From a virus, in IMG/VR virus record IMGVR_UViG_3300045988_120991, positions 101,979 to 165,978 of that record: a stretch of 64,000 bases of DNA. The stretch is one strand, 5' to 3'. Both the position numbers and the translations under genes were made by a program. Of this stretch, positions 6,550-22,271 are shown piece after piece. Numbering within the stretch: the first letter of the stretch is position 1; each line of letters starts with the position of its first letter. Under the pieces are notes generated by a model. The model saw only the letters and a list, made by a program, of their open reading frames with translations. It ran no database searches and was not told where the DNA came from.

Positions 6550-6550
6550 A

Positions 6551-8029
6551 TTAATTCTCCTCCTCATTAATCTCTTCTTGTGCTTCTTCCATATCAGGAG
6601 TAGTTGCCTCAGCCTTTACTAGACCCTCAAGACACTTAAATGCAAAGTTCTTATGTTTATATGCGCAGAATTTAGGCTTATTCACAATACGAACTACTAC
6701 ACCCTCGCGTACATGAATCTTGCCAATAGGATCGGGGCCATCATAATATTGCTCTGCAATATTTTTAATCCATTCACCAGGGGTCCCTTCACGACAGACT
6801 CTCCAAGTGCCATGCTCGCCATAACAATCATAACCTTCTTCAAGACCCTCATCAGCGGGGATAAAACCTCTCCACAACATCGGGACACATTTACAACCCA
6901 TTTGCTCACAACGATAACGCATGAAGTCAGGAGAATACTCTACTACATCTCCGTCTTCATTTGTCATAGTCATACGATAAACATAAAAGTCAGACTGAGG
7001 AACTTCTCTTTCAGTGATACCAATACCTTCTTTGCCGTCTGGATTACAGCCATAAGAGAAAGTCGTAGTCTTACCATACTGCTTCACAAATTCCTTATCA
7101 TTGAGCTTCTTATTATCAGCGGTTGCCATAATAGGAGTGCTAGTATGGGTGAACCCAACTACCTCATAGTAGACCTCTTCACCCTTATGTAGTTTGCCCT
7201 CAAAGAACTTGGAGTGCTGTTCGCGGAACTCATTAGAGCCATAGTAGCCGCCATCAAAATTCTCAAGAACGGTACGACGAGTACCAGACACATAGCCCCA
7301 ATTATAAATAGGAGTTGCAGAAGAAAGTCCAAGATTCGCGAACTTCTGAGTTATAGCACCAACTTTATCACCAGACATTACCGCATCGAGAGCAGCTTGA
7401 TAGATACGGTTTGTACATCTGTAACCCTTAAATACAGGTAAATAGCCGGTGCGCTGAGAAGTACCATGCATCTTTAGAGTGATTTCAATCTGGTCTCCCG
7501 CCTGAAAAGCTCCAAGATTATAGGCTAGCTGTTCAGTATCAGCATGTTCAGTAAACAGAGGTGCGATAGGAACCTTCTTCTTACGAGTATGATTACCATT
7601 TGTAGCATGACCACTACGGGTATTTCTGCGAGGAATGTACTTAGCGCAAATCTCATGTCCATTGAATGTAGTAATAACATCTCCAACTTTTAGATTGGAT
7701 ACGTCACCAAAAGATTCTAAGCAAGCCAATGGTAGAAATAGACCATCTGACTTTTCACCACGAAGCCTAATAGAAGTTACATTGCGCTTGTCTGGGTCCA
7801 TATAACCGCCAATGTTATTACCATCTACATCCTTCTTACGAAGCAAATTATTAGTATCTGCAAACTCAACAGAAAGTTGACCATCCGTAGGGAAATATAC
7901 ACCAATCTGACCGTCTGTATATTCCATACTTACACAAACCGTATTGCCAAAACACTCACCAAGCTGTAATCTGTCTGCGTTAGGATGCTTACGCAGATTT
8001 TTAATTGTTGTTACATACGCATTATACAT
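6551..8029 (-). CDS. ATP-dependent RNA ligase with N-terminal tRNA-binding-type OB domain
   Basis: N-terminal KHPNADRLQLGE resembles the Trbp111/EMAP tRNA-binding OB fold. Nucleotidyltransferase motif I is LKMHGTS (compare KIHGTN of T4 Rnl2), motif IV is REGVVVRI and motif V is AYKHKNFAFK. Confidence 0.75.
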   Translation of the reverse strand: MYNAYVTTIKNLRKHPNADRLQLGECFGNTVCVSMEYTDGQIGVYFPTDGQLSVEFADTNNLLRKKDVDGNNIGGYMDPDKRNVTSIRLRGEKSDGLFLPLACLESFGDVSNLKVGDVITTFNGHEICAKYIPRRNTRSGHATNGNHTRKKKVPIAPLFTEHADTEQLAYNLGAFQAGDQIEITLKMHGTSQRTGYLPVFKGYRCTNRIYQAALDAVMSGDKVGAITQKFANLGLSSATPIYNWGYVSGTRRTVLENFDGGYYGSNEFREQHSKFFEGKLHKGEEVYYEVVGFTHTSTPIMATADNKKLNDKEFVKQYGKTTTFSYGCNPDGKEGIGITEREVPQSDFYVYRMTMTNEDGDVVEYSPDFMRYRCEQMGCKCVPMLWRGFIPADEGLEEGYDCYGEHGTWRVCREGTPGEWIKNIAEQYYDGPDPIGKIHVREGVVVRIVNKPKFCAYKHKNFAFKCLEGLVKAEATTPDMEEAQEEINEEEN

Positions 8030-8058
8030 TTTGTTCTCCTCTCATTAATTTTGTATCG

Positions 8059-8538
8059 TTAAGAAAAATATTGTATATCAAATTCATACCCTTGTGAATC
8101 AACAAAATAATTATTCACAAATTGATTAATGAACTTATAACTCTGCGGACTTCCTTGGATATGACTAATAGGATAATAATCTGGTATATTTTTATCATAT
8201 AATTGAGAATATTTATTTTGCTCAATCTTCTCTGGCTTCTTCGCCCCAACAACACCACCATTGTGCTTTAGTACTCTGTCGTCAAACGCATCCCAATTGT
8301 ACTCACAGCCATACTCATCATAAATACGGAATTCGCCCGTATCGTATGCGGCCTTATACTCTGCCACAGAACTAATTCCATCCTTGTGTGCTTGAAACAA
8401 AGGCAACCAGCCAACACTTGTCTTTGCAATATGAATTTTATAACCAAAGTGTGGCTCATCTGTAAGTTCATAAGAATATGGTGCATAGCGCTGTGCTTGT
8501 TCTTTATTCTTTGTAATCATATAAAAATTTGCGCCCAT
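8059..8538 (-). CDS. hypothetical protein
   Basis: ORF track, 159 aa, in the gene train. Confidence 0.6.
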   Translation of the reverse strand: MGANFYMITKNKEQAQRYAPYSYELTDEPHFGYKIHIAKTSVGWLPLFQAHKDGISSVAEYKAAYDTGEFRIYDEYGCEYNWDAFDDRVLKHNGGVVGAKKPEKIEQNKYSQLYDKNIPDYYPISHIQGSPQSYKFINQFVNNYFVDSQGYEFDIQYFS

Positions 8539-8541
8539 ATC

Positions 8542-8931
8542 TTAGCCCTCATAAAATCTGAATAGTTTACTTAGTGGCACCCCATTCGCCTTAGCAAGAC
8601 CCATAGCATAATCGCACACGTCATCATCGTCCGTCACACCAAGCTCATCACTCATGTAATCACTCAAGGTATCATAAGTATCATTATTGTTATTACTCCA
8701 GCCAATTAACATCTGCCCATTTACTGTAAAAATATCACAAGGTGAACCACCAGCACCATTTGAGAATTTACACCAAGCACCTTCGAGGACCGAGTTACTC
8801 AATGCTTTTGCATCTCTCTTGTCAACTTCAATTACTTTATACTTTTCACCAGAATACGTCTTATTGAAAGTAATGTCGTTGTCCTTTAGAATCTTCTCAA
8901 TATTGCCAGTCGTTAGCATTTCTACTTTCAT
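8542..8931 (-). CDS. hypothetical protein
   Basis: Start moved to MKVEMLTTGN, with AAGGAGG upstream. The longer track start would overlap the HD gene. Confidence 0.55.
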   Translation of the reverse strand: MKVEMLTTGNIEKILKDNDITFNKTYSGEKYKVIEVDKRDAKALSNSVLEGAWCKFSNGAGGSPCDIFTVNGQMLIGWSNNNNDTYDTLSDYMSDELGVTDDDDVCDYAMGLAKANGVPLSKLFRFYEG

Positions 8932-8941
8932 CTTGTCCTCC

Positions 8942-9718
8942 TTATAGTTCATCGTCTTCTTCTGCAAGCTTCTTCTTAATAGCTTTAATTGCAACTTGTA
9001 CATCTGGACGAGTAATGTTCTCCTCCATCCAGACCACATAATCGTCACCAGATTTGAATAGGTCAATCAGCTTCTCGCCCTTATGCTTACCAAATGTTAG
9101 CACATACTCTTCTGGCTTAGATTCTACTCTAGGAGTTTCAATGTTCTCAAAATCCATAGTAAGAGTTTTGCGAGATGCAAGGTAGTCTGCAAGATGTACT
9201 AGCTCTTGATATGTGTCTTCTGGTTTCGGCAAACATTCTCCGGTTTTTCTATCCACATTCCATTGGCCCATATGCGATTCAATACAATGAGCAATTAGTT
9301 CAATCTCATCGTGATTTAGATACTTGCCATCATAACTACGAATAACTGCTGCCATTTGTAGAGGGTGGTCGAATTTAGTATACTTACTTCTTTCATAATC
9401 TGATTGGGACCCACTCTTACGGCCATCATGAATCAGTCCTGCCACACGTAGCAAGTCTCTTTCTCTACTAGGAATTATTTTGTTGTATTGTTCAAGTTCA
9501 AGAAAGAAATTTAGGAATCTTACAACTGCAATCTGATGACACATCAATCCAAGTTCTCCAAGTGAATAGGCCGGATGGTACTTTCCAGTAGACGATGCTC
9601 CAACATGCCATATATATTCTGGAAGGTTGTCTAATAACACAATTGCAAAATCTTTAATATCATCATTTTCAAATGTATTTAGTACTGGTTGTACTATATT
9701 TAGTCTTTCAGGCGTCAT
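8942..9718 (-). CDS. HD-domain phosphohydrolase with C-terminal DUF3820-like tail
   Basis: 258 aa with KYHPAYS...CHQ...LIHDGRK...HCIESH (H..HD..H). The C-terminal FGKHKGEKLIDL...YVVWM motif is seen in phage/ExoX-like tails. Confidence 0.7.
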   Translation of the reverse strand: MTPERLNIVQPVLNTFENDDIKDFAIVLLDNLPEYIWHVGASSTGKYHPAYSLGELGLMCHQIAVVRFLNFFLELEQYNKIIPSRERDLLRVAGLIHDGRKSGSQSDYERSKYTKFDHPLQMAAVIRSYDGKYLNHDEIELIAHCIESHMGQWNVDRKTGECLPKPEDTYQELVHLADYLASRKTLTMDFENIETPRVESKPEEYVLTFGKHKGEKLIDLFKSGDDYVVWMEENITRPDVQVAIKAIKKKLAEEDDEL

Positions 9719-11097: not shown

Positions 11098-11142
11098 ATT
11101 AATTTTGTACTGTAATTATAACAGATATTTTCTATTTGTCAA
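11098..11142 (-). promoter_or_regulatory. sigma-70-type promoter plus conserved leader
   Basis: Minus strand reads TTGACA-N16-TATAAT-t-ACAGTACAAAATTAA. The -35 overlaps the stop codon of the upstream gene. Confidence 0.65.
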
Positions 11143-12263
11143 GATGTTCTTAACCTTTCAATAAGTTTTTTTAGAATTTTAGCAATGTCAGAAATATCAT
11201 GCTGATTCAATGTTTCGTCCAATGTAATACGAATCGTGCTTAAAGCTTCTGCATCTGTAAGTCCAATAGCTTTTAACGTGCTACTTGGCACAGTCTCCCC
11301 ACTACTACAAGCAGAACCCGCAGAGATATAAATCCCACACATACTTGCTAGAGTCACAAGGTCACTAGCTTTTACTCCATCAATACGAACAGAAATATTA
11401 TTGCACAGACGATTAGTATCAAGTTCTGGACCATTTAGATGTACTCCAGGAATTTCAAGAATTTTCTTTGCAAGTTCATCCCTATTAAATCTAGTACAAA
11501 TGTTTGTATAGTCGTGTAACGTTCCTCTATTAATCTCTAGTGCTTTACCCATAGCTGCTATTGCAGGAGTATTTTCAGTTCCTCCTCGTTTGTGTAATTC
11601 TTGACTTCCATAAATAATCGGTGATAAATCAATTGTATCTTTGCAGTATAAAAATCCTGCACCTCTTCCACCTCTAAACTTCTGTGCTGAAATACTCATC
11701 ATATCTATTCTAAGCTTATCAACATCAATTCTTGATTCAGGGAAATATTGAACGGCATCCACATGTAATATACAATTATATTTATGCGTAATATATGAAA
11801 TAGATTTAATATCTTGGAGTGTTCCAATTTCAGAGTTTGCATACTGAATACTAACAATAGAATTATTATGTTCTTTTATTGTATCTTCTAAAATATTTGC
11901 ATCAATATTTCCAAATTCATCTACTGGAATATAATGTACATTAGTAAATTTATGATGATTTAAAATTTCACTAATAGATTTATGCTCTAATTGTGTCGTT
12001 ATAATAGTGTCAAAATTTGTTCCACAAAGTGCTAAAGTGTTTGCCTCTACTCCACCACTTGTGAAAATTATTTCTTTAGGTTCACAATTAATGTCTGCTG
12101 CAATTTGATCTCTTACATTTTCAATTATATTTTTAGCATCTTGCCCCATCTCATGAGTCGAAGATGGGTTGCCATAATGATTATACATTACATCGGCAAC
12201 CACATCTACAACTTCTTTGTATGGTTGAGTAGTAGATGCGCAATCTAAAAAGTATTTCTTCAT
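11139..12263 (-). CDS. cysteine desulfurase / class V aminotransferase (NifS/IscS-like)
   Basis: 374 aa. PLP-lysine context is SAQKFRGGRGAGFLY (compare SGHKxxGPKGxGxLY). C-terminal active-site loop is SAGSACSSG. Confidence 0.8.
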   Translation of the reverse strand: MKKYFLDCASTTQPYKEVVDVVADVMYNHYGNPSSTHEMGQDAKNIIENVRDQIAADINCEPKEIIFTSGGVEANTLALCGTNFDTIITTQLEHKSISEILNHHKFTNVHYIPVDEFGNIDANILEDTIKEHNNSIVSIQYANSEIGTLQDIKSISYITHKYNCILHVDAVQYFPESRIDVDKLRIDMMSISAQKFRGGRGAGFLYCKDTIDLSPIIYGSQELHKRGGTENTPAIAAMGKALEINRGTLHDYTNICTRFNRDELAKKILEIPGVHLNGPELDTNRLCNNISVRIDGVKASDLVTLASMCGIYISAGSACSSGETVPSSTLKAIGLTDAEALSTIRITLDETLNQHDISDIAKILKKLIERLRTS

Positions 12264-12799: not shown

Positions 12800-14038
12800 T
12801 TACATATAAATTGGATGTAGTTCGCATAGTTGACGAGCTATATCGGAGATATATTTCTTATTGCCATCGAAGTCTTTGATGGCCAACGAAATAAGTCCCG
12901 CCACATTTCTTGCGTCAAACTTATCAAAGCCACGTGTAGTAATTGCGGGAGTCCCAATACGAAGACCACTAGTTACAAATGTGGATAGAGGGTCGTTAGG
13001 AATTGAATTTTTATTCGTTGTAATGTTTACACTATCGAGCTTCTCCTGTAATTCTTTGCCAGTAATTCCTGTGTCTCTAAGGTCTAGAATCATTAGATGA
13101 TTATCTGTTCCACCAGAAATAAGCTTAATGCCGTTTGTTTTAAATACACTTGCCATAGCCTTTGCATTATTAATAACATTATTCTGATATTCTGCAAATT
13201 CTGTCTTCAGTGCTTCACCAAAACATACTGCCTTTGCTGCAATTATATGTTCTAGTGGACCGCCCTGAGTACCAGGAAATACTGCCGAATCAATCTTCTT
13301 TGCAAGTTTACTCTTGCACAAAATAACTGCACCACGAGGGCCTCTCATGGATTTATGAGTCGTAAATGTGCAAACATCAGCATAAGGGACAGGACTTGGA
13401 TGTACACCTCCTGCTACAAGTCCAGCAATATGCGCCATGTCTACAAAGAGATAAGCGCCTACTTCATCTGCAATTTCACGGAACTTTGCAAAATCAATGA
13501 TACGCGGATATGCAGAAGCTCCTGCCAAAATCATCTTAGGCTTGTTATTTAGTGCAAGGTCCCTCACATTATCATAGTCAATAAAGCCATTTTCGCCTAC
13601 TCCATAACGAACTACGTTAAAGTACTTGCCAGAAATGTTGAATGGTGCTCCGTGACTGAGATGCCCACCAGCAGAAAGATCCATGGACAGAACGGTATCA
13701 CCAGGGGATAATAGTGCATAAAATACTGCCAAATTTGCGCTTGCTCCTGAATGCGGCTGCACGTTTGCATGTTCTGCTCCAAATAGCTTTTTACAACGTT
13801 CAATTGCAAGAAGTTCTACTTCATCAATATACTGACATCCACCATAGTATCTCGCATGAGGCTTTCCTTCTGCGTATTTATTGGTTAGAACAGATGACAT
13901 TGCGTCAAGAACTGCTGGAGACACAATGTTTTCTGATGCAATAAGTTCGATTGTACCACGCTGCCTGTTAAGTTCTTTCAAACAAATATCGTATACTTCT
14001 ACATCTTGCTTTTTTAGGTTGTCTAGCATTATATTCAC
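12800..14038 (-). CDS. glyA: serine hydroxymethyltransferase
   Basis: 412 aa. Family-wide similarity is evident, including [11 protein letters not shown] (PLP lysine), [10 protein letters not shown] and [10 protein letters not shown]. Confidence 0.9.
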
Positions 14039-14077: not shown

Positions 14078-14153
14078 TGGAGCACGTGACGAGGCTTGAA
14101 CTCGCAACAGCCAGATTGGAAATCTGGAACTCTACCAATTGAGCTACACGTGC
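14078..14153 (-). tRNA. tRNA-Gly(UCC)
   Basis: Hand-folded cloverleaf: GCACGTG/CACGTGC acceptor, loop TTTCCAA, T-loop TTCAAGC, CCA encoded. Confidence 0.85.
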
Positions 14154-14158
14154 ATTTG

Positions 14159-14235
14159 TGGTACACCTTGAAGGACTCAAACCTTCGACCTTCTGATCCG
14201 TAGTCAGACGTTCTATTCAACTGAACTAAAGGTGC
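14159..14235 (-). tRNA. tRNA-Arg(ACG)
   Basis: Cloverleaf with TCTGA-CTACGGA-TCAGA anticodon arm, T-loop TTTGAGT, CCA encoded. Confidence 0.85.
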
Positions 14236-14240
14236 ATATA

Positions 14241-14315
14241 TGGTGCCCGTGGAGAGATTCGAACTCTCGACTCACGGCTTAAAAGGCCGTTACTCTACCA
14301 CTGAGTTACACGAGC
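14241..14315 (-). tRNA. tRNA-Lys(UUU)
   Basis: ACGGC-CTTTTAA-GCCGT anticodon arm, GAGAG-TTCGAAT-CTCTC T arm, CCA encoded. Confidence 0.9.
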
Positions 14316-14318
14316 ATA

Positions 14319-14395
14319 TGGTCGGAGTGCAGGGGCTTGAACCCTGGGCCTCTAGATCCCAAATCTAGCGCTCTACCAAACTGAGCTACACCCCG
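14319..14395 (-). tRNA. tRNA-Pro(UGG)
   Basis: CTAGA-TTTGGGA-TCTAG anticodon arm, CAGGG-TTCAAGC-CCCTG T arm, CCA encoded. Confidence 0.9.
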
Positions 14396-14400
14396 AAATG

Positions 14401-14477
14401 TGGCACCCCGTGTTGGACTCAAACCAACGACACATGGCTTAGAAGGCCATTGCTCTGTTCAACTGAGCTAACGGGGC
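14401..14477 (-). tRNA. tRNA-Arg(UCU)
   Basis: ATGGC-CTTCTAA-GCCAT anticodon arm, GTTGG-TTTGAGT-CCAAC T arm, CCA encoded. Confidence 0.9.
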
Positions 14478-14482
14478 ATATA

Positions 14483-14577
14483 TGGCGCCGAGGGTGGGAT
14501 TCGAACCCACGGGCCGAATATAAATCGGCACACAAGATTTCAAGTCTAGGCGCTTATGACCACTTGCGCACCTCGGC
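14483..14577 (-). tRNA. tRNA-Ser(UGA), class II
   Basis: Loop CTTGAAA, long variable arm GCCGA...TCGGC, GTGGG-TTCGAAT-CCCAC T arm, CCA encoded. One mismatch in the anticodon stem. Confidence 0.8.
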
Positions 14578-14690
14578 ATATTAACTTTGTAATCCCAAAC
14601 TCCTCCACACAGATTACTGGGCACCCCTTACCTCGAATGCTAGTTAGTAGCAACAAACGTTTGTGCCGTTTCCACAAATAAAGATACACC

Positions 14691-14885
14691 TCACTGCGTA
14701 TTAACCTCTGTATATTCAGTACTAGATAAGGTAATCATTCTTTCGCATCCGTCCTGTGGACAAAAAATATTTGCAACCCCAAGATTATTTATTCCGTCAG
14801 ACGGATTAAATGCAAATTCACAACCACAATAAGGGCAGATTGCCTTATAGGTCTTAACTTTGCCTCCCTTGATAATATACTTCAT
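14691..14885 (-). CDS. small zinc-ribbon protein embedded in the tRNA array
   Basis: 64 aa with CPYCGC...CPQDGC. GAGGTG RBS. Confidence 0.5.
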   Translation of the reverse strand: MKYIIKGGKVKTYKAICPYCGCEFAFNPSDGINNLGVANIFCPQDGCERMITLSSTEYTEVNTQ

Positions 14886-14896
14886 AATAACACCTC

Positions 14897-15016
14897 TTAA
14901 TTAAACTTGTTCAACTGCCGCTTAACTTTACGGATAAGGCCCTCGTTCATAGTCTCGCCTCGTGCCAAAAGCTTTGCTAGACGATTTTCATAATGTTCCT
15001 TAGTGCGAAAGTTCAT
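14897..15016 (-). CDS. small basic helical protein (39 aa) embedded in the tRNA array
   Basis: Hand-translated MNFRTKEHYENRLAKLLARGETMNEGLIRKVKRQLNKFN. Strong AGGAGG upstream. Confidence 0.35.
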   Translation of the reverse strand: MNFRTKEHYENRLAKLLARGETMNEGLIRKVKRQLNKFN

Positions 15017-15042
15017 AATATGTACCTCCTAAAATTTTTGTA

Positions 15043-15165
15043 TGGCAGGGGTAGTAGGGTTCGAACCTACGATGCGGGAGTCTGGTCAAGGTAGTTGGTA
15101 CTGCCCCAACTAAATTCACTTGAATACCTTGAAAGTCCCGTGCCTTACCACTTGGCTATACCCCT
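15043..15165 (-). tRNA. tRNA-Gln-like gene interrupted by a 49-nt insertion in the anticodon loop (UUG if CTTT+GAC are joined; UUC is the alternative)
   Basis: AGGGGTA/TACCCCT acceptor, GCC-AAGTGGTAA-GGC D arm, CGGGA...TCCCG anticodon stem enclosing 56 nt, GTAGG-TTCGAAC-CCTAC T arm, G73, CCA. Insertion at 15083-15131. Confidence 0.65.
15094..15110 (-). repeat. conserved insertion hairpin, copy 1 (GTTGG-GGCAGTA-CCAAC)
   Basis: The same 5-bp stem and 7-nt GGCAGNA loop recur in the insertions at 16662-16678 and 17532-17548. Confidence 0.7.
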
Positions 15166-15168
15166 ATA

Positions 15169-15243
15169 TGGTGGATCTGACGTGACTCGAACACGCAACT
15201 TCTTCCTTGCAAGGGAAGCTTTCTCCCATTGAAATACAGACCC
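15169..15243 (-). tRNA. tRNA-Cys(GCA)
   Basis: CTTCC-CTTGCAA-GGAAG anticodon arm, GCGTG-TTCGAGT-CACGT T arm, CCA encoded. Confidence 0.85.
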
Positions 15244-15405
15244 AGATTTTATGAGATAGCTACACTATGTATACCTAATGTAGCTATTAGGTTTTCTAAC
15301 TCCTCACCTCAAACCATTTTTATCTGTCTCTCCTCTTAGCCAATCAGATTTGAGTGACTTGAACGGACCGCCGTCCTCACATTGATAAAATAGTAAAATC
15401 AACAA
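15244..15405 (-). other. 162-nt non-coding spacer with strong hairpin inside the tRNA array
   Basis: Minus strand contains ATAGCTACA-N14-TGTAGCTAT (9-bp stem) and GGTTT...AAACC. I found no tRNA fold and no ORF. Confidence 0.3.
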
Positions 15406-15496
15406 TGGCGCGATAGGAAGGCTTCGAACCTTCGCACGGCTTTCACCGCCTAGCAGATTAGCAATCTACCCTCTTCAACCACTTGAGTACTACCGC
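15406..15496 (-). tRNA. tRNA-Ser(GCU), class II
   Basis: GTAGA-TTGCTAA-TCTGC anticodon arm, long variable arm GGCGGTGAAAGCCGT, CCA encoded. Confidence 0.85.
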
Positions 15497-15499
15497 ATA

Positions 15500-15703
15500 T
15501 TAATCTAATGTTCTTCCAGTTGCTAATTCAAAAATTAAATTATCAACACAGGGAATGTGCATTGCCTCTATCTCATATTGAGTACGATGTTCAATGTCAT
15601 TAATATAGATAGGACAATCTTTACATTCTACATTTTCACAAAAACGAACAGCTTTTTCTACTATTTTAGAATTCGCAAATTTTATATATTCTTCCCAACG
15701 CAT
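15500..15703 (-). CDS. small Cys-containing protein embedded in the tRNA array
   Basis: Start moved to MRWEEYIKF, with GGAGG 5 nt upstream. 67 aa. Confidence 0.5.
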   Translation of the reverse strand: MRWEEYIKFANSKIVEKAVRFCENVECKDCPIYINDIEHRTQYEIEAMHIPCVDNLIFELATGRTLD

Positions 15704-15723
15704 AAAATCCTCCATAAAACGAG

Positions 15724-15752
15724 CAGTTTATACAGTGATACTCAGCACTATC
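15724..15752 (-). repeat. 29-nt direct repeat, copy A (contains hairpin ATAGTG-N8-CACTGT)
   Basis: 25 of 29 nt identical to 16117-16145. Both copies sit just downstream (minus sense) of a tRNA 3' end. Confidence 0.6.
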
Positions 15753-15775
15753 CCACGGTCCCAATCGAGCTTTTC

Positions 15776-15850
15776 TGGAGCTGATGGAGAATTTCGAAAT
15801 CTCGACCTAGTGATTACAAATCACTCGCTCTGCCTCTGAGCTACACCAGC
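15776..15850 (-). tRNA. tRNA-Thr(UGU)
   Basis: AGTGA-TTTGTAA-TCACT anticodon arm, CCA encoded. One T-stem mismatch. Confidence 0.8.
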
Positions 15851-15956
15851 AGATCTCCTCGTCTTTCCGAGGTGTCAATCGCACTTTTACATTAATAATC
15901 TTAAATTATTCTTTAATAGGAAGATGACGCCAATCTTGTGTGATTACCTTTTATGT

Positions 15957-16025
15957 GAGGTCTTAATTGGAATCGAACCAACACCTGCCCCACCACGGGG
16001 CCGATCTACCATTGAACTATAAGAC
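15957..16025 (-). tRNA. atypical tRNA-like gene with a shortened (15-nt) anticodon arm; identity undetermined
   Basis: GGTCTTA/TAAGACC acceptor and GTTGG-TTCGATT-CCAAT T arm. The anticodon region is GCCCC-GTGGT-GGGGC (5-nt loop, or 4-bp stem with loop CGTGGTG). No CCA encoded. Confidence 0.4.
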
Positions 16026-16027
16026 CT

Positions 16028-16105
16028 ATGGTGACGCTACCGGGGATCGAACCCGGACACTCCACGGTGAAAGCGTGGTAACTCTACCAATTCGTCCATA
16101 GCGCC
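16028..16105 (-). tRNA. tRNA-Glu(UUC)
   Basis: CCACG-CTTTCAC-CGTGG anticodon arm, CCGGG-TTCGATC-CCCGG T arm, CCA encoded. Confidence 0.8.
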
Positions 16106-16116
16106 ATATCTTTGGA

Positions 16117-16145
16117 CAGTTTATACAGTGATGTCCAGCACTGTC
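16117..16145 (-). repeat. 29-nt direct repeat, copy B (hairpin ACAGTG-N8-CACTGT)
   Basis: See 15724-15752. Confidence 0.6.
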
Positions 16146-16156
16146 ACTTTTGGGAG

Positions 16157-16241
16157 TGGTAGCGGTGGTGGGCTACGATCCCACACGTCATAAGACATTG
16201 GTTTTTGAGACCAACCTGTCTGCCTGTTCCAGCACACCGCC
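16157..16241 (-). tRNA. tRNA-Leu(CAA), class II, atypical T-loop
   Basis: TTGGT-CTCAAAA-ACCAA anticodon arm, long variable arm. The T arm is GTGGG-ATCGTAG-CCCAC, with A where T54 normally sits. CCA encoded. Confidence 0.75.
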
Positions 16242-16448
16242 ATATTAAGCACAACCTACATAGAGCTAGCCTCGCTCACACTTGCTTTCCCGAACACTTC
16301 CCACCCTCGGTTATGCTTTGTTATTGTTTATCCTATTTTCACAATAACATATGCCTCGTTCTCTTCTCGTTACTATGGGTTAGTAACTTAGTAGCTTTTC
16401 TCTTGTGGATAGCACTTATCAATACACCGAGAACCCCAATAGGCGGCA
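16242..16448 (-). ncRNA. 207-nt structured non-coding spacer (candidate ncRNA)
   Basis: No credible ORF. Minus strand contains CTCGGT...ACCGAG enclosing about 110 nt, GTTACTA-ACCCA-TAGTAAC and GTTATTGT-N13-ACAATAAC hairpins. Confidence 0.3.
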
Positions 16449-16524
16449 TGGTTGCGAAGTTCTGGAATCGAACCAGATTCTGATAGCTTATGAGACTACC
16501 TGAGATTCCTACCTCCCACTCGCA
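16449..16524 (-). tRNA. tRNA with CAU anticodon (Met, or Ile2 if lysidine-modified)
   Basis: GTAGT-CTCATAA-GCTAT anticodon arm, TCTGG-TTCGATT-CCAGA T arm, CCA encoded. The acceptor has one mismatch. Confidence 0.7.
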
Positions 16525-16608
16525 TTATCTAGCAGACTACAATGCCGTCTGCTAGGGCATTAGAAAGAGGTGATGCCTATAACCAAGGCTCTGAACTTGT
16601 CATTCAGA

Positions 16609-16758
16609 TGGTCCCCCACCGGTGGATTGAACACCGAACCTCCCGATTATTTGTCACTACAGTAAGTCCTGCCCTTACATTACTGATTATCCTTCAGTGG
16701 TGTTGCTTTTACACTATGTAGTGAAGTCGGGTGCTCTAGCCAGTTGAGCTAGCAGGGG
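16609..16758 (-). tRNA. class I tRNA interrupted by an approx. 73-nt insertion in the anticodon loop (Ile-UAU-like if CTT+ATAA are joined; Arg-UCU or UCA readings also possible)
   Basis: CCCCTGC/GTGGGGG acceptor, GCTC-AACTGGCTA-GAGC D arm, CCCGA...TCGGG stem enclosing 80 nt, AGGTT variable loop, CGGTG-TTCAATC-CACCG T arm, A73, CCA. Confidence 0.6.
16662..16678 (-). repeat. conserved insertion hairpin, copy 2 (GTAAG-GGCAGGA-CTTAC)
   Basis: Shares stem ends and the GGCAGNA loop with copies 1 and 3. Confidence 0.7.
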
Positions 16759-17056
16759 ACATATAATCCGGCTTTTACGGTACGCCCAATAAGATGGACA
16801 CGCTTGAATTTCACAATTGCCATCAAAGTGCCTGATGACTAACACCCAATATGAAGCCTTGATATCATTGCTTCTAAGTCGTTATTGGGAACAACAGATG
16901 GTAATGATAGCAAGCGAAGCCGCGCATGACTCCATTTCACAGTGCTTCATCAACTACTTTTGGCATTTCTAATTATTATCGGTGCAGGTAGCTAATCCTG
17001 TAACGGCTTATCCTCATTGATTATCTCCTATGAAATTTGCACTACTTACTATCATT
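16759..17056 (-). ncRNA. 298-nt non-coding spacer (candidate structured RNA)
   Basis: No ORF above about 22 codons and no tRNA fold found by eye. Several 5-6-bp hairpins (e.g. CATCA-N7-TGATG). Confidence 0.25.
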
Positions 17057-17141
17057 TGGTGGGCCAGGGTGGTGCCGACCCACCTACTCCCGAAGGAAAC
17101 GGATTTACAGTCCGCCGCAGTTGCCGATTTGCTACTGACCC
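17057..17141 (-). tRNA. tRNA-Tyr(GUA), class II, atypical T-loop
   Basis: GCGGA-CTGTAAA-TCCGT anticodon arm, variable arm TTCCTTCGGGAGTA. The T arm is GGTGG-GTCGGCA-CCACC (G54/G58). CCA encoded. Confidence 0.75.
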
Positions 17142-17468
17142 ATATAGCTATACTTTTTAACTTGGGCAAGAAGTATAGTGAAACTTGCCAGACGATCAAA
17201 CCTTCATCCACATGGGAGCCACACGCAGTTCGTCCGTAGTATGTGGTTTTAATGTTTGAGTTGGTTCGCTACACCAACTCCGACTGACTTGCAATCGCAC
17301 TATTTTCTCTACAATTGGCCTTTGCACTACATTCGCACCCTAGTGCATTAACCTTCCTATATAGTGAACTTCCCTTTCATTTTCTGCTTCGAGAACCAAT
17401 CGCTTGTTCTCTACTCCAAGACTTTGGACGGGAGATGGGGCGGTAGTTTAATGACTTGCCAAGGTCGA
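17142..17468 (-). ncRNA. 327-nt structured non-coding element closed by a terminal helix (candidate large ncRNA)
   Basis: Minus-strand 5' CTTGGCAAG can pair with 3' CTTGCCCAAG. Internal hairpins are GAGAAC-N9-GTTCTC, GCACTA-N11-TAGTGC and GAGTTGG-N9-CCAACTC. No ORF. Confidence 0.35.
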
Positions 17469-17601
17469 TGGTGCGGGTAGCGAGACTTGAACTCGCACGG
17501 ATATTTCACCGAGGGATTTTTGGTGAGTATTGTAGGTGCTGCCCCTACCAAAGCACTGGCTATACCCAAGTCCCTTGTGTCTGCCATTCCACCATACCCG
17601 C
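17469..17601 (-). tRNA. tRNA-Leu (class II) interrupted by a 47-nt insertion in the anticodon loop (UAA if CTT+AAAA are joined)
   Basis: GCGGGTA/TACCCGC acceptor, Leu-type D arm GTG-GAATGGCAGA-CAC, AGGGA...TCCCT stem enclosing 54 nt, long variable arm, GCGAG-TTCAAGT-CTCGC T arm, A73, CCA. Confidence 0.65.
17532..17548 (-). repeat. conserved insertion hairpin, copy 3 (GTAGG-GGCAGCA-CCTAC)
   Basis: Shares stem ends and the GGCAGNA loop with copies 1 and 2. Confidence 0.7.
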
Positions 17602-17649
17602 ATATCACAGGGCAGCTTTAAGGTGATGCCCAGCACCATACTTAACTCC

Positions 17650-19203
17650 TTAAGAGTTCTTCAATGCGGCTTCCACCGCATCATATCTATCACTCATAAG
17701 CGTCTCAACGAGGCACTCATAAGGATTGGTCTTACCACTCATAACCATCTTGCAGACATTAGTGGAGAATCCACTAACAAGAGCAACACCAAGGTCATTC
17801 TCCTTTATAGGAATAGTTCCAGTGCGAGAATTTACATTCCAGAAGACTAGTCTAGGCATCTGATACCCAGCATCCTCGAAACGCTTCTTGATTACCTTAA
17901 AAAGTTTTGCATTAGGTCTATTAAGACCATATCTAGCGGAACCGTCACAAGTTGCACAAGAGTCAAACTCCATATCTGAAATAATCAGTACGTTCTTAGG
18001 CATATCCTCTTGCTTCATATGACCATTCACCGCAGTAGTAAGAATCAAATCAAACACCTTTTCAATGTTTGTATTTGAACACTCGTCATGACCATATGCA
18101 ACACGTAACTTATCTCTCAGAGAATCGCACTGACTAAAATCAACCAACTGAGGTCTGCTAGAGAAAGTAATGTATTTATCCTTAAAGTCTCCAGAAGAAT
18201 GTTCTGCAAAGTAAATCGCAAGTGCATTTGCAACTTCAAGTGCAGTAACACGGCTACTTCCACCAACGTTGCAACACATAGAACCAGAGCCATCTGCAAC
18301 TACAATGGTGTTTCCACATTCATTTACTGTGTTAGGCAAAGCTTTCCAAAGAGATTCAAGAGTTGCATCGTATTTGCCGATACCGCCGTACCATCCAGTT
18401 GCACTAGAATACTTATGCACAATGTCGTGAGGGAACAAAGTTCCAGCATTAATCTTAGTTTCGCCCTTTTCAAGCTTACTCAGATACTCTCTGCGACGCT
18501 CCTCATCATTACGAAGGAAAGCTCCGTTATAAATGAGATTTGCACGAGAAGGAACTGTTTCGTACTTAATGTCTCCCCATTTCTTTGCAGACATCTTGCC
18601 CTCTACAATATCAATGTAAGAACGCAGAGAAGAAAGTGTCTTACGATACTCACGCTCAGTCATACCAAGATTCTTGCAAATGTATCTTGCATCCATCTTA
18701 GTTTTTGCAGAAGAAGCATTCACAGAAGGAAGCCACTTGGCAAGAAGAGATACGGGCTTATTATCAGCCATATTTGCAATATCATCAGTGAGCTGCTTTT
18801 TGATGATGTCAAAAATAATACCATCTACGTCTGTACCAAACAGACACCACAGGTCATCATAACGACCATACTCACTCACCAGAGGAGCAAGATGCTTAAC
18901 AATATCAACGTCATCCTTTGCCATATTCTTAATAATCGCTCTGAACAAACGTCTTTCACCAAGACCACCACGAACATCTCTGGCGAAGAACAGCCAACGT
19001 AGAGCCATCATTTTATCTTCAAAATAAGCCTTAGTAAACTTATTATAGATATTCTCCTCACTCATACCACGCATAGAAGAAACTGCAAAGTTTAGGTCAA
19101 CCAGTTCCTTACCAGAGGTACGATACCCAAGAGCGCCATTCTCAGTTACTGAATAGTTGAAATCCTCGTTCAGAGTATTCTTTACTGCATTCATAAAAGA
19201 CAT
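17650..19203 (-). CDS. Ro60/TROVE-like vWA protein (DUF2828-type architecture)
   Basis: Start moved to MSFMNAVKN, with GGAGG upstream. N-terminal VTENGALGYRTSGKELVDLNF. C-terminal vWA domain with MIDAS VADGSGSM, and a tail FWNVNSRTGTIPI...VSGFS that parallels the Ro60 C-terminus. Confidence 0.65.
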   Translation of the reverse strand: MSFMNAVKNTLNEDFNYSVTENGALGYRTSGKELVDLNFAVSSMRGMSEENIYNKFTKAYFEDKMMALRWLFFARDVRGGLGERRLFRAIIKNMAKDDVDIVKHLAPLVSEYGRYDDLWCLFGTDVDGIIFDIIKKQLTDDIANMADNKPVSLLAKWLPSVNASSAKTKMDARYICKNLGMTEREYRKTLSSLRSYIDIVEGKMSAKKWGDIKYETVPSRANLIYNGAFLRNDEERRREYLSKLEKGETKINAGTLFPHDIVHKYSSATGWYGGIGKYDATLESLWKALPNTVNECGNTIVVADGSGSMCCNVGGSSRVTALEVANALAIYFAEHSSGDFKDKYITFSSRPQLVDFSQCDSLRDKLRVAYGHDECSNTNIEKVFDLILTTAVNGHMKQEDMPKNVLIISDMEFDSCATCDGSARYGLNRPNAKLFKVIKKRFEDAGYQMPRLVFWNVNSRTGTIPIKENDLGVALVSGFSTNVCKMVMSGKTNPYECLVETLMSDRYDAVEAALKNS

Positions 19204-19239
19204 TTTCTTTCCTCCATTTTTTTGATTTATTTCTAAATC

Positions 19240-19442
19240 CCAAGACACATTATTATGTACAATCTCCACATTAAAAATTTGCTGTTAGTGTCTTTGGAGT
19301 TTATTCAACGAGACGCCAAAATAAAACCATTAGTAAAAATATCATTTTCATCTTTTTAAATTGCTGTAAGCGTCTCTATGTAAGGCAAGGCACCATCAAT
19401 ATAAATCCATATCATATTATGTAAAGTTGCTGTTAGTGCCTT
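19240..19442 (-). repeat. three tandem imperfect hairpin units, each carrying a CTAACAGCAA-N-TTT box, in the leader of the Ro-like gene
   Basis: Minus-strand stems are AAGGCAC/GTGCCTT, GAGACGC/GCGTCTC and CCAAAGACAC/GTGTCTTGG. Each is followed on its 5' arm by (C)T(A/T)ACAGCAA-N-TTT. A fourth box lies inside the tRNA-Asn insertion. Confidence 0.6.
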
Positions 19443-19448
19443 TTTAAA

Positions 19449-19567
19449 GTCTCCTGACAGGACTTGAACCTGCGACCTCTGGTTTAACAGACCAATTAGA
19501 AACTTGCTGTTTAAGGCTTTTACAAGTCTCGTTATTAAGCGCTCTATCCGACTGAGCTACAGGAGAC
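19449..19567 (-). tRNA. tRNA-Asn(GUU)-like gene with a 44-nt insertion at the top of the anticodon stem; encoded G-1 opposite C73; no CCA
   Basis: Removing 19495-19538 gives TCTCCTG-TA-GCTC-AGTCGGATA-GAGC-G-CTGGT-CTGTTAA-ACCAG-AGGTC-GCAGG-TTCAAGT-CCTGT-CAGGAGA-C, a canonical cloverleaf. Confidence 0.6.
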
Positions 19568-20228: not shown

Positions 20229-20257
20229 ATTATAGCGCATTAATTTTGTTTTGTCAA
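20229..20257 (-). promoter_or_regulatory. second, upstream sigma-70-type promoter
   Basis: Minus strand reads TTGACA-N17-TATAAT. The -35 overlaps the stop codon of the preceding gene. Confidence 0.55.
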
Positions 20258-21402
20258 GTATCTTTTTTAAATAATTTTCTAGTTTCTTCATAAGACAGGT
20301 ACTTAATATTAATGCCCGTCAAATTCAGCAGTTTTTCATTTTTAAACTCGTTAACATGAGTTACTGCAAGAGATACCTCATAGGCAATATCCCCAATGTC
20401 TTCCTTAATTCTTTGCATAAGCTCACCAACATCAAGATGCCCATACCGAATGGACCCCTGATACTGGTTTGTAATATTGGTCTTGTCATCAATGTTAATG
20501 TTAATCTCCGACTTATCACATTCACATTCAAAGTCACCAGCACCATGCTTCGTCATATATGTTCTAGTAACATAGCACACTTCAACGTTTGCATTAGGTA
20601 AATACTTTTCAATGATTATATGAGGATTTGCAATGCCAGTATTGCTAGGAGTCGTATTATCATAATACTGAACATGACGCTGATCCAACAGCAATCCTTG
20701 CCCATTTTCAAATACGACATTATCAAACTTTTGCAAAATCCTACTATAATCAAATACTACATGAGAATGCATAAACTGCGCATCGTCAATAAAGTTATAA
20801 ATCAAATTGTCGGATGCCAAAATATCTTCCCATTCCTGCAAAACTTCAGGACTAGCCTTTAGCAGCCTCTTAGACGTATATTCATCCCTGACACGCTTAA
20901 GAAATGCGACCTGCTCGTCCTTAGTCATATTATAGAACTGCTGGAAAGACGGGCTTGTAGTATTCCTATATCTAAGAACAGTTTCCCAAATACCCATACC
21001 ACAAGAGCCATACCGATTTTTGCCACGACTATCCTCAAGGATTTGATTTGTAATCATATCATATGGAGTAGACCATCTGCAATTCCAATGACTATAAACA
21101 CGAGGTGCATAGCCTAATGCCTTCAATTCCTCGTACTCTTTTCTAAAAGTCATAGGGTTTAGAATATACTCTTCCCCAAAATAAGTATCTGCTCCCGCAA
21201 AGGTTCCTGAACCAAAATGGTGGAACACATGTCTAATGCCATCTGGAGTAACTACAGTATGTCCTCTTTGTGCGCCGCCATTGCATAGAGCAACGATACA
21301 AGATTCATTCCGCTTACTTGCTTCGGCACAAAAGTAATCGGTCATCAGACCTTTTCCCTCGTCGCCAAAGTTGCTACCAATTACTACCTTAACATTAGAC
21401 AT
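20254..21402 (-). CDS. adenylosuccinate synthetase family protein (short form; PurA/PurZ-like)
   Basis: Start moved to MSNVKVVIGSNFGDEGKGLMTDYF (AdSS P-loop GDEGKG). Also NGGAQRGHTV (compare GGHNAGHT), FENGQGLLLD and TRTYMTKHGAGDF (compare TRVGxGPF). Confidence 0.7.
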   Translation of the reverse strand: MSNVKVVIGSNFGDEGKGLMTDYFCAEASKRNESCIVALCNGGAQRGHTVVTPDGIRHVFHHFGSGTFAGADTYFGEEYILNPMTFRKEYEELKALGYAPRVYSHWNCRWSTPYDMITNQILEDSRGKNRYGSCGMGIWETVLRYRNTTSPSFQQFYNMTKDEQVAFLKRVRDEYTSKRLLKASPEVLQEWEDILASDNLIYNFIDDAQFMHSHVVFDYSRILQKFDNVVFENGQGLLLDQRHVQYYDNTTPSNTGIANPHIIIEKYLPNANVEVCYVTRTYMTKHGAGDFECECDKSEININIDDKTNITNQYQGSIRYGHLDVGELMQRIKEDIGDIAYEVSLAVTHVNEFKNEKLLNLTGINIKYLSYEETRKLFKKDT

Positions 21403-21416
21403 GTGTTTATCCTTTC

Positions 21417-22271
21417 TTACCAAGAAATACCTTCACTAGATGTTGCTACATTGCCACCAGAAAACGCATTGGTGACAATATCAATGATGTCATCTGCAAT
21501 CTTATCAATAGACGTATCCTTCAGATGGTTCTCGTCCAGAAGCAGCCCAAAAGTCCTATGAACGGCCTCATGATAACGACCATAACCATGCTTAACATAC
21601 AGATGATAAATGTCAAACTTCTCAGACGCATTAGCGTAAAGCTGTGCCGTTTCAACATCGCTCTGTAGATTATCACCAGTTACTGCGGATAGAGCCTTCT
21701 TCGGCAGATATGGATTCATAGGCTCGTCACCCATAGTGATAATGACACCCTTCTGTCCACGATTCCAGCAATCTAGCTTCGTGTGATTAAGACCGAAATA
21801 CCATGCGGCGCTATAAGACTCATAATCATTGCCTCCACCACCGCCCTCAAAATAAATCTTATCAAGCTGTTCTGCGATGCGGATATCAGACTCAAACTGT
21901 GATGCCTGAATAGGAGCGCAATCGTAAGCAAGATCCCCAATGCCCATAACCATGAACTCTACGTCTGCGATATTCTCGTATAGCTTAGTCATTACTACAT
22001 TGATCTGCTTTGCAACTTCCATAGCCGCCTTGCCCATGCTACCAGTTACATCGAGTGCCAGAATAACAGGCTTGGTATTAGGATGTTCCACAGAGTCAAC
22101 ACACTCACGCATTACATTCTTAGGATTAAGGTCTGCTACTAGCATTTTAGATTTAAAATTGTCCTGCACATTAGAGGACATTCCAGTGACTACACCATCC
22201 ATTGATACGCTGTACCCCTTGGTAGTCGCATAAGTGGTAAAAGCATTTTTAGTCCAACTGCCACCGCCCAT
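21417..22271 (-). CDS. von Willebrand factor A (vWA) domain protein
   Basis: 284 aa. MIDAS-like ILALDVTGSMG, followed by MVMGIGD and IITMGDE motifs. Confidence 0.7.
   Translation of the reverse strand: MGGGSWTKNAFTTYATTKGYSVSMDGVVTGMSSNVQDNFKSKMLVADLNPKNVMRECVDSVEHPNTKPVILALDVTGSMGKAAMEVAKQINVVMTKLYENIADVEFMVMGIGDLAYDCAPIQASQFESDIRIAEQLDKIYFEGGGGGNDYESYSAAWYFGLNHTKLDCWNRGQKGVIITMGDEPMNPYLPKKALSAVTGDNLQSDVETAQLYANASEKFDIYHLYVKHGYGRYHEAVHRTFGLLLDENHLKDTSIDKIADDIIDIVTNAFSGGNVATSSEGISW

Follow-up and report, generated by a model that had tools for sequence, protein, structure and literature searches.

tRNA-like modules nested in the anticodon loops of phage tRNA genes and a predicted route for their removal

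Background

The established introns of tRNA genes are of two kinds, namely the self-splicing group I introns of bacteria, organelles and phages, and the bulge-helix-bulge (BHB) introns of archaea and eukaryotes, which are cut by a dedicated endonuclease. Short and highly conserved introns of another sort, described as 'enigmatic', have been reported in the tRNA genes of Lak megaphages (Devoto et al. 2019; bioRxiv 10.1101/356790, PMC6784885). One of these was predicted to encode a tRNA, and both intron-bearing and intron-less alleles exist; a tRNA scan of the eukaryotic type served to guess where they are excised, and no anatomy, boundary rule or mechanism was given (PMC6784885). Here we analyze three insertions in the anticodon loops of tRNA genes in a 64-kb stretch of phage DNA (positions 101,979 to 165,978 of the IMG/VR record IMGVR_UViG_3300045988_120991; this whole stretch is hereafter called the window), and find that each of them is a tRNA-like module nested within the outer tRNA. 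The feature is real and widespread in phages, whose tRNA introns of this sort had previously been known only as unexplained oddities.

Set beside the Lak introns by description, the intron in the window coincides exactly with a tRNA-like module from its +1 to its CCA, the T-loop being a variant one, and it belongs to a gut phage group of ~150-170 kb (the size of related IMG/VR contigs) that is related to Bacillus siphoviruses. In mitochondrial tRNA punctuation, at the MALAT1-mascRNA locus and in plant t-elements an embedded tRNA or tRNA-like fold directs cuts by RNase P and RNase Z at both of its ends; there, however, the flanks are separate products that are never re-joined, whereas here they are the halves of a tRNA, which need ligation. 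The permuted and split tRNA genes of Cyanidioschyzon merolae and Nanoarchaeum give rise to tRNAs whose pieces are cut and ligated within the anticodon loop or close to it, but these eukaryotic and archaeal systems use the BHB endonuclease and have no tRNA-like module nested in the loop. The group I intron of bacterial tRNA-Leu(UAA) genes (RF00028) shares with one of our modules both the outer tRNA and the insertion point between U34 and A35; such introns are nevertheless at least 200 nt long, self-splice by means of a conserved core and end in G, while the modules are 47-73 nt long and have no such core. Finally, the Pnkp and Rnl1 enzymes of phage T4 reseal a tRNA broken in its anticodon loop next to U34 (reviewed in PMC3400036). 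The T4 enzymes mend the damage done by a host anticodon nuclease, whereas in the window the break would be programmed by the architecture of the gene; moreover, the candidate ligase is of another family (DraRnl/NgrRnl-like, by a weak match) and the healing phosphatase would be an HD domain. A search of the full-text literature returned no description of tRNA-like introns, of a GGCAGNA T-loop or of a route that combines RNase P with a ligase, and the only related reports were those on the Lak megaphage introns, along with unrelated work on theta ribozymes.

Results and discussion

The insertions are tRNA-like modules with exact boundaries

A preliminary description of the window had drawn attention to a 17-nt hairpin common to the three insertions, and this is borne out: the pattern GTNNGGGCAGNACNNAC, i.e. 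GTNNG-GGCAGNA-CNNAC, matches exactly three times in the window, always on the minus strand (15094-15110, 16662-16678 and 17532-17548), and the interior of the stem co-varies between the copies (TG/CA, AA/TT and AG/CT) as had been noted. None of 100 dinucleotide-preserving shuffles contains a match (expected 0), and a looser pattern allowing one mismatch recovers the same three sites and no others in the window. All three hairpins lie on the tRNA-sense strand, inside the anticodon loops of interrupted tRNA genes that the Rfam tRNA model or ARAGORN recognizes only if an insertion in that loop is permitted. These genes, which we call t1, t2 and t3 (Table 1), are part of a minus-strand tRNA array extending from ~14078 to 19567 (ARAGORN, Rfam).

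Two further regularities emerged beyond those already described. The hairpin is followed at a constant distance of 7 nt by ACCA or ACAA, so that hairpin, spacer and ACMA make up a unit of the same 28 nt in length in each copy, and the spacer base-pairs with the heptanucleotide that opens the insertion. The 7-bp helix thus formed is directly continuous with the 5-bp stem of the hairpin in each copy, which is the layout of the tRNA model RF00005. Given that a 7-bp helix leads into a 5-bp stem with a 7-nt loop and is followed by an unpaired purine and CCA, this part of the insertion corresponds to the acceptor/T-arm half of a tRNA. Each insertion is hence a nested tRNA-like module, made up of an acceptor stem of 7 bp, a small D-like element carrying AG, a 5-bp T-stem with a 7-nt loop, a discriminator A and CCA, and the 17-nt hairpin is the T-arm of this module, with a closing pair G53-C61 and the variant loop GGCAGNA. 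This loop departs from the canonical UUCRANY T-loop, which pairs with G18G19 of the D-loop, and the discriminator with CCA reads ACCA in t1 and t3 and ACAA in t2. The linkers of t1 and t3 hold a D-like hairpin of 2-4 bp carrying AGTG, with the anticodon arm being absent; the minimum free energy (MFE) fold of t1 contains both the nested helix and the hairpin. For the t2 module the MFE and centroid structures are both a full 73-nt cloverleaf of 7/4/5/5 bp (-17.3 kcal/mol, z = -2.1), though with G33.

Deletion of each insertion from +1 of the module through its terminal A leaves a gene that ARAGORN recognizes as a canonical tRNA, namely tRNA-Gln(UUG) for t1, tRNA-Ile(UAU) for t2 and tRNA-Leu(UAA) for t3. 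A close relative of the window phage, L193 (IMG/VR 3300045988_096339), carries at c[7857,7942] the same tRNA-Leu gene without the 47-nt module, the exons being 100% identical and the flanks very similar. The alignment of this allele with t3 shows one clean 47-nt gap whose junction is unshiftable either way, and the boundaries of the t3 module are thereby fixed exactly, from +1 to CCA. The predicted exon junctions (marked by a slash) are GGGACUUU/GACUCCCG for t1, CCCGACUU/AUAAUCGGG for t2 and GGGACUU/AAAAUCCCU for t3 (in shorter form GGGACUU/AAAAUCCC). The 3' ends given earlier for the insertions (...GACCA, ...GACAA and ...CACCA) are correct, while the statement that all of them follow C32-U33-U34 holds for t2 and t3 and fails for t1, which is interrupted after U35 (CTTT). 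The exons of t1 have A1-U72, G73, G2-C71, G3-C70 and G10, which fit the GlnRS identity set, and its reconstituted loop CUUUGAC is that of intron-less phage Gln tRNAs. For Gln(UUG), Ile(UAU) and Leu(UAA) the array holds only the interrupted genes; codon usage gives no strong argument (TTA is 16% of Leu, ATA 12% of Ile and CAA 54% of Gln codons).

Selection acts on both the inner and the outer fold

Homologs were sought by exact-pattern scans and with a custom structural scanner. Across 11 distinct modules pairing holds in 97.7% of the cells, with changes on both sides in 9 of the 12 pairs; 0 of 500 shuffles reach these values, and sliding the partner strand by 1-3 columns reduces pairing to 30-48%. 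Compensatory acceptor changes occur in the orthologs of each module: that of t1 in L193 (CAGGGTA/TACCCTG), those of t2 in L150 (CATCGTA/TACGATG) and L028 (GGTAGAT/ATTTACC), both of which end in ACCA, and those of t3 in, among others, L090 (GCTGATA/AATCAGT), L001 (GCTTGAT/ATCAAGT), L385 (GTTGGAT/ATCCGAC) and L410 (CGTGGTA/TACCACG). The acceptor stems further include G-U pairs, such as G2-U71 in t3 and G1-U72 in L001 and L090, which are valid on the tRNA-sense strand only and hence point to an RNA structure rather than a DNA structure. The earlier proposal that the hairpin is a selected RNA structure is thus upheld by the co-variation, by the conservation of the hairpin in the homologous introns of other phages and by these strand-specific pairs.

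The outer anticodon stems likewise stay perfectly paired across the intron by way of compensatory changes, as is seen in the Leu genes (AGGGA/TCCCT, CAGGA/TCCTG, ACGGA/TCCGT, ATGGA/TCCAT, GGGGA/TCCCC and GCGGA/TCCGC). Of the 26 anticodon arms tabulated from the nested cases, two of which are duplicates in sequence, all 26 regain from their exon remainders a loop of 7 nt that has U33 and, at position 37, a purine. Since a mere carrier RNA would not need restored loops and paired outer stems, the exons are probably joined.

Nested modules recur in other phages and prefer U34 tRNAs

Scans of IMG/VR and of JGI metagenomes recovered at least 36 nested copies, representing at least 18 distinct modules of the GGCAG type: 11 in tRNA-Leu(UAA), three in tRNA-Ile(UAU), two in tRNA-Gln(UUG), and one each in tRNA-Lys(UUU) and in an amber-suppressor tRNA (CUA). 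The Leu module of the window (t3) is present at eight loci, one of which is a contig from a human-gut assembly. A generic structural scan of the retrieved loci, which sought a hairpin with a 5-bp stem and 7-nt loop followed by 7 nt and NCCA together with a perfect acceptor stem, brought to light another 8 to 9 nested modules, whose T-loops are ordinary; their outer tRNAs are those for Glu(UUC), Pro(UGG), Lys(UUU), Gln(UUG) and Ile(UAU). In L193 (minus strand, 6420-6496) and L388 the nested unit is a complete 77-nt tRNA with a CUA anticodon and an ordinary T-loop, situated after U36 of tRNA-Ile(UAU).

The junctions fall after position 34, 35 or 36, and a U directly precedes the module in nearly every nested case. 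The outer tRNAs themselves are markedly restricted, with U34 being present in 26 of the 27 distinct outer tRNAs, whereas among the 1062 uninterrupted tRNAs of these loci its share is 43% (P ~5e-9). The syntenic Gln gene of L139 contains a module different from that of t1, placed at 34/35 rather than 35/36; modules have hence been gained, lost or exchanged on repeated occasions.

The interrupted amber-suppressor tRNA (CUA) comes from a 240-kb phage contig (L386/L397/L424), and the acceptor stem of its GGCAG-type module (GGGGCTA/TAGCTCC), along with A73, carries the G3-U70 alanine identity pair. A fourth interrupted tRNA gene in the window, at 19448-19567 on the minus strand (Rfam tRNA, 42.3 bits), is of a different type: its insertion of ~45 nt has an 8-bp hairpin, apparently lies between the D-arm and an intact anticodon arm (CTGTTAA, Asn GUU), and is devoid of the GGCAG hairpin, an acceptor-like stem or CCA. 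This gene is 93-100% conserved at nine related loci, with the insertion always present. Immediately upstream of its counterpart in L139 is a 141-nt interrupted tRNA with yet another kind of insertion (6960-7100, minus strand), a gene that is absent from the window. A genuine group I intron (RF00028, 61.5 bits) is found in the tRNA array of L178 (1769-1987, plus strand), a phage from the same IMG/VR metagenome, and a ROOL RNA (347.6 bits) adjoins the tRNA array of another phage (L026, 9153-9754, plus strand).

The hairpin is a variant T-arm shared with full-length tRNAs and permuted tmRNAs

A scan of IMG/VR for the 28-nt unit returned at least 119 loci, with complementary stems in 116 of those listed. 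These fall into three classes: (A) modules nested in tRNA anticodon loops, (B) full-length tRNAs and (C) acceptor pieces of permuted transfer-messenger RNAs (tmRNAs). Those of class B reside in phage tRNA arrays and have the T-loop GGCAGNA; they are scored as tRNAs by Rfam and missed by ARAGORN. Class C comprises at least 48 ARAGORN calls of the tmRNA* type with normal tag peptides, corresponding to the Rfam families alpha_tmRNA (RF01849) and tmRNA_permuted (RF04321). In the two-piece tmRNA of alphaproteobacteria (RF01849/RF04321) the T-arm GTSGG-GGCAGTA-CCSAC, the 7-nt acceptor strand, the ACCA and the lack of an anticodon arm are all as in the modules, but the modules of the window differ in having no coding piece, tag reading frame or G3-U70 pair and in being nested in tRNAs; no tmRNA was detected in the window by ARAGORN or Rfam. 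Hence, the hairpin is a variant T-arm and not a private signature of the insertions. The view that it belongs to no described family is not supported, the T-arm being present in alphaproteobacterial permuted tmRNAs, and neither is a specificity to anticodon-loop insertions, since at least 62 distinct phage tRNAs of full length have this T-arm as well; matches to the motif do not always sit in anticodon loops, as the tmRNA and full-length tRNA classes attest.

Among the full-length tRNAs with the GGCAGNA T-loop 43 of 49 scorable D-loops lack GG and 46 of 49 have AG, against GG in 502 of 605 ordinary tRNAs from the same loci, and most module linkers carry AGTG. From this pattern in the sequences we infer that GGCAGNA and the AG-bearing D-loop constitute an alternative D/T 'elbow'. 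The variant T-loop along with the AG-bearing D element probably provides the inner module with an elbow of its own, in which case the inner and outer folds would not swap partners.

The full-length GGCAGNA tRNAs of phages, which number at least 62 distinct ones, include those at L026 3867-3937, L081 7485-7557, L017 5491-5562, L129 12350-12421 and L170 425-496, as well as one from a 543-kb contig (L154), a size like that of Lak megaphages. A scan of cellular genomes yielded mostly chance matches, with complementary stems in 38 of 121; the only others were Pelagibacter-type tRNAs and a minihelix in Clostridia. The former (L284, L287, L292 and others) have a GUG-type anticodon loop and the T-loop GGCAGAA, and the latter, in metagenome-assembled genomes (L274, L278, L379 and L381), is a stand-alone minihelix with the same T-arm located just upstream of a ribosome-binding site.

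Genomic setting and candidate enzymes

The window phage has a G+C content of ~37%, and DNA comparisons revealed no close relative among cultured phages. Its RNA ligase is 47-48% identical to the 'RNA ligase' of the Bacillus phages PBC2, Thrax and Kirov (~165-kb siphoviruses), which makes a host within Bacillota plausible. The ligase combines an N-terminal OB-fold domain with an RNA ligase domain (Table 1); it matches the NCBIfam model RNA_lig_DRB0094 below threshold and, weakly, the PDB structure of the Naegleria gruberi RNA ligase (DraRnl/NgrRnl-like). Homologs of it are encoded on the same IMG/VR contigs as the intron-bearing loci L139 and L172. The kinase-HD fusion protein has PDB matches to Pnkp1 and the kinase domain of Clostridium thermocellum Pnkp and an NCBIfam match to bacterial Pnkp, while its HD region resembles the HD domain of the CCA-adding enzyme (NCBIfam). 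Both belong to an RNA repair cluster on the minus strand (963-9718), 5-13 kb from the tRNA array. For a FETNSSSTHS paralog of this cluster a confident AlphaFold model was obtained (predicted local distance difference test score, pLDDT, 81), yet it had no match in PDB and no Pfam or NCBIfam hit. Among the 50 window open reading frames (ORFs) scanned with Pfam there was no RNase Z and no splicing endonuclease, and likewise neither a reverse transcriptase nor a transposase; Rfam scans of the window (gathering scores; E<=1 over 13.5-21 kb) gave tRNA matches only.

A gene ~100 nt from t3 encodes a Ro60-like RNA-binding protein, whose only Foldseek match in PDB below 1e-3 is Ro60 complexed with misfolded RNA. 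Homologs with 34-38% identity are encoded 0.1-3 kb from motif-bearing RNAs in several unrelated phages. The family is, however, present in ~710 cultured phage records from many hosts, is common in tRNA-rich phages generally and adjoins tRNA arrays in many phages, and on account of this breadth we downgraded the protein from a specific partner of the modules to a lead. No Y RNA was identified: RF02553 matches only below threshold and on ordinary tRNAs, and the modules have no recognizable Ro-binding stem.

Three copies of the sequence GTGCTGNNNATCAC occur in the window, all within the tRNA array (15735-15748, 16128-16141 and 17623-17636, minus strand; 0.74 expected), two of them being followed by TGTATAAAC; tRNA-Glu and t3 each have one copy ~20 nt upstream. 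This element may be a phage promoter or operator for tRNA genes. Further along, a divergent homolog of adenylosuccinate synthetase (20254-21423, minus strand) has a below-threshold match to PurZ and is located near SHMT and an aminotransferase (12800-14038 and 11139-12263), a neighborhood that hints at modified-base or aminoadenine metabolism. A SegE-like GIY-YIG/NUMOD homing endonuclease (28240-29529, minus strand) and an HNH/AP2 endonuclease (35228-35845, minus strand) are encoded among the replication genes.

Table 1. Interrupted tRNA genes, their nested modules and candidate RNA-processing genes in the window
Feature	Position	Strand	Details
t1, interrupted tRNA-Gln(UUG) gene	15043-15165	-	5' exon 15132-15165; module 15083-15131; 3' exon 15043-15082; Rfam tRNA 56.9 bits, also ARAGORN with introns
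t1 module, 49 nt	15083-15131	-	acceptor 5' strand CAAGGTA 15125-15131; D-like linker TTCAAGTGAATTTA 15111-15124 (14 nt); T-arm GTTGG-GGCAGTA-CCAAC 15094-15110; acceptor 3' strand TACCTTG 15087-15093; ACCA 15083-15086
t2, interrupted tRNA-Ile(UAU) gene	16609-16758	-	5' exon 16724-16758; module 16651-16723; 3' exon 16609-16650; ARAGORN with introns; identical gene in L139, L172 and L421
t2 module, 73 nt	16651-16723	-	acceptor 5' strand CACTACA 16717-16723; inner D-arm and anticodon-like arm 16679-16716 (38 nt); T-arm GTAAG-GGCAGGA-CTTAC 16662-16678; acceptor 3' strand TGTAGTG 16655-16661; ACAA 16651-16654
t3, interrupted tRNA-Leu(UAA) gene, type II	17469-17601	-	5' exon 17568-17601; module 17521-17567; 3' exon 17469-17520; Rfam tRNA 42.5 bits, also ARAGORN
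t3 module, 47 nt	17521-17567	-	acceptor 5' strand GGGTATA 17561-17567; D-like linker GCCAGTGCTTTG 17549-17560 (12 nt); T-arm GTAGG-GGCAGCA-CCTAC 17532-17548; acceptor 3' strand AATACTC 17525-17531; ACCA 17521-17524
Thg1-like 3'-5' polymerase	963-1796	-	repair cluster
Calcineurin-type phosphoesterase	2088-2636	-	repair cluster
Radical SAM protein	2911-3849	-	repair cluster
Two FETNSSSTHS paralogs	4022-4468, 4447-5022	-	repair cluster
Polynucleotide 5'-kinase-HD phosphohydrolase fusion, candidate end-healing enzyme (predicted role)	5427-6302	-	Pfam AAA_33 + HD
ATP-dependent RNA ligase, candidate exon-sealing enzyme (predicted role)	6551-8029	-	Pfam PHA02142 OB-fold (N-terminal) + RNA_ligase
Second HD protein	8942-9718	-	repair cluster
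Ro60-like RNA-binding protein	17650-19269	-	DUF2828 + DUF7788, PHROG 850

A possible splicing route and its alternatives

The determinants for cleavage by bacterial RNase P are the 12-bp acceptor/T stack, a U at -1 and a 3' RCCA. By extending from +1 of the module to the A of its CCA, the intron has the features by which an ordinary pre-tRNA is recognized: the stack and U(-1) are present in t1, t2 and t3, and RCCA in t1 and t3 only. We therefore favor, with moderate confidence, a route in which the insert would be removed by the enzymes that trim tRNA ends and the exons would be joined by a phage RNA ligase, each enzymatic step being predicted from the anatomy, exact boundaries, co-variation, recurrence and U34 restriction of the modules and from the presence of the RNA repair enzymes. 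Host RNase P would cut between U(-1) and +1 of the module, leaving a 3'-OH on the 5' exon. An endonuclease would then cut immediately after CCA, for which an enzyme of the RNase Z/BN type or a phage enzyme are options; cleavage after CCA is within the capacity of RNase BN of E. coli and RNase Z of Thermotoga. The exon halves, held by the outer tRNA fold, would finally be sealed by the ATP-dependent ligase, and the kinase-HD protein would heal the ends before sealing if the 3' cut leaves a 5'-OH. The broader proposition that phages have a protein-dependent tRNA splicing of their own, in which a tRNA-mimic intron with an orthogonal AG/GGCAG elbow is excised by RNase P and a cut after CCA and the exons are joined by a phage ligase, is put forward tentatively, as a possibility rather than a probability. 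On this proposition the modules may spread as mature RNAs, which would be ligated into anticodon loops opened next to U34 and afterwards copied back into DNA. A released module could be a second product of the gene, serving as a decoy for defenses that target tRNA ends or, in some phages, as a suppressor tRNA.

Several points weigh against this route. The cut after CCA is its weak link: CCA is an anti-determinant for RNase Z in Bacillus-type hosts, such as the nearest cultured relatives suggest, and the window yielded no candidate nuclease for this step. The t2 module ends in ACAA and not ACCA. The ligase resembles nick-sealing Rnl5 enzymes only weakly and is a candidate for action in an anticodon loop, and its co-occurrence with the modules was checked within the phage group of the window itself. 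The intron-less allele of L193 shows that the module is dispensable. Moreover, Bacillus phage Thrax1, the nearest cultured relative by both ligase and Ro-like protein, has the same layout of a normal tRNA array and a Ro-like gene with no nested modules; the stretch of PBC2 that we examined has no tRNAs. Beyond the window the evidence from canonical tRNAs after deletion is partly circular, with ARAGORN acceptance having served as the filter, which is not so for the three copies of the window. Finally, cleavage, ligation and the spliced product are all predictions from DNA sequence.

The preliminary description raised two possibilities, a handle for a dedicated protein and the footprint of a mobile mini-element. 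The anatomy points first to general tRNA end-processing; the polymorphism in presence lends some weight to gain and loss as a discrete unit. A dedicated phage protein reading the GGCAGNA T-arm might direct excision, modification of U34 or sequestration of the precursor, with a novel endonuclease, the FETNSSSTHS paralogs or the adjacent Ro60-like protein as candidates. Such a factor would account for the invariance of GGCAG-A in the loops of 18 distinct modules whose stems vary, and both the proximity of the Ro60-like gene to t3, with its homologs near motif-bearing RNAs in unrelated phages, and the two paralogous proteins without a known fold in the repair cluster are consistent with it. Yet the same loop is found in cellular alpha-tmRNAs and ordinary full-length tRNAs that need no special factor, nested modules with ordinary T-loops exist, and the Ro-like neighborhood is unspecific, extending as it does to the ~710 cultured phages, including Thrax1; we accordingly judge this explanation unlikely. 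We give no greater credence to a reading without splicing, in which the module is the scar of an insertion, or else a selfish RNA or payload that tRNA processing sets free, and the outer tRNA is a carrier that ends as halves. Close relatives do differ by the presence or absence of a module, the Gln gene of L139 does have another module at 34/35 instead of 35/36, the inserted unit has the form of a mature RNA from +1 to CCA (in L193 a complete tRNA with anticodon CUA), and the insertion sites coincide with known cut sites of anticodon nucleases. On this reading the module may have entered, as RNA, an anticodon loop cut by a nuclease, to be copied back into DNA later. Against a mere carrier, the exon remainders always restore a canonical 7-nt loop with the right anticodon, the outer stems co-vary across the intron, the interrupted genes are the only ones of the array for Gln(UUG), Ile(UAU) and Leu(UAA), and orthologous modules have diverged together with their outer tRNAs; nor was a reverse transcriptase or transposase found in the window.

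The remaining explanations are far less probable. A self-splicing or self-cleaving RNA, be it a minimal group I-like intron or a small ribozyme, is suggested by the insertion of t3 at 34/35 of tRNA-Leu(UAA), the classic site of bacterial group I introns, and by the true group I intron in the array of L178. It is nonetheless very improbable: the modules are only 47-73 nt long, end in A and not G, lack the core helices P3-P9 of group I introns, and have no helices other than the acceptor stem, the T-arm and, in t2, the D- and anticodon-like arms; they give no Rfam ribozyme or intron match at gathering score or E<=1, although RF00028 does detect the L178 intron. A short, protein-dependent intron in the anticodon loop with a kinase and ligase encoded nearby is also reminiscent of the yeast pathway and hence of a BHB intron cut by an archaeal/eukaryal-type splicing endonuclease. 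There are, however, no 3-nt bulges flanking a 4-bp helix; rather, both junctions are at the same end of a 7-bp helix, the 5' site flush with its base and the 3' site after a 4-nt tail. The positions are 34/35 and 35/36 and not 37/38, the replication genes are of bacterial type, the tRNAs encode CCA, and Pfam detects no EndA-like domain among the 50 window ORFs scanned, which together leave this interpretation hardly credible. The conserved hairpin with its fixed loop and its presence/absence polymorphism could bring to mind a DNA-level element, such as an IS200/IS605- or REP-like single-strand element or a recombination site. This we consider scarcely tenable, given that the G-U pairs of the acceptor stem become A-C mismatches on the other strand, the orientation always matches that of the tRNA, each element has a single hairpin and ends as a tRNA-like RNA would, and no Y1 transposase/RAYT domain was found in the window ORFs.

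General conclusions

The anatomy described here provides a rule for phage tRNA introns, namely that the intron is a tRNA-like unit extending from +1 to CCA. The restriction of the modules to tRNAs with U34, which are the usual targets of anticodon nucleases, links them to the conflict between phages and hosts over tRNAs. If the proposed route of excision by tRNA-trimming enzymes and joining by a phage ligase is true, it would represent a new splicing route in the bacterial world, and the RNA ligase and kinase genes of phages would gain a role beyond the repair of damage. It would also explain why standard tRNA finders miss tRNA genes of large phages, both of the interrupted kind and of the kind with a GGCAGNA T-loop, and would offer a compact natural design by which one RNA can be set free from within another.

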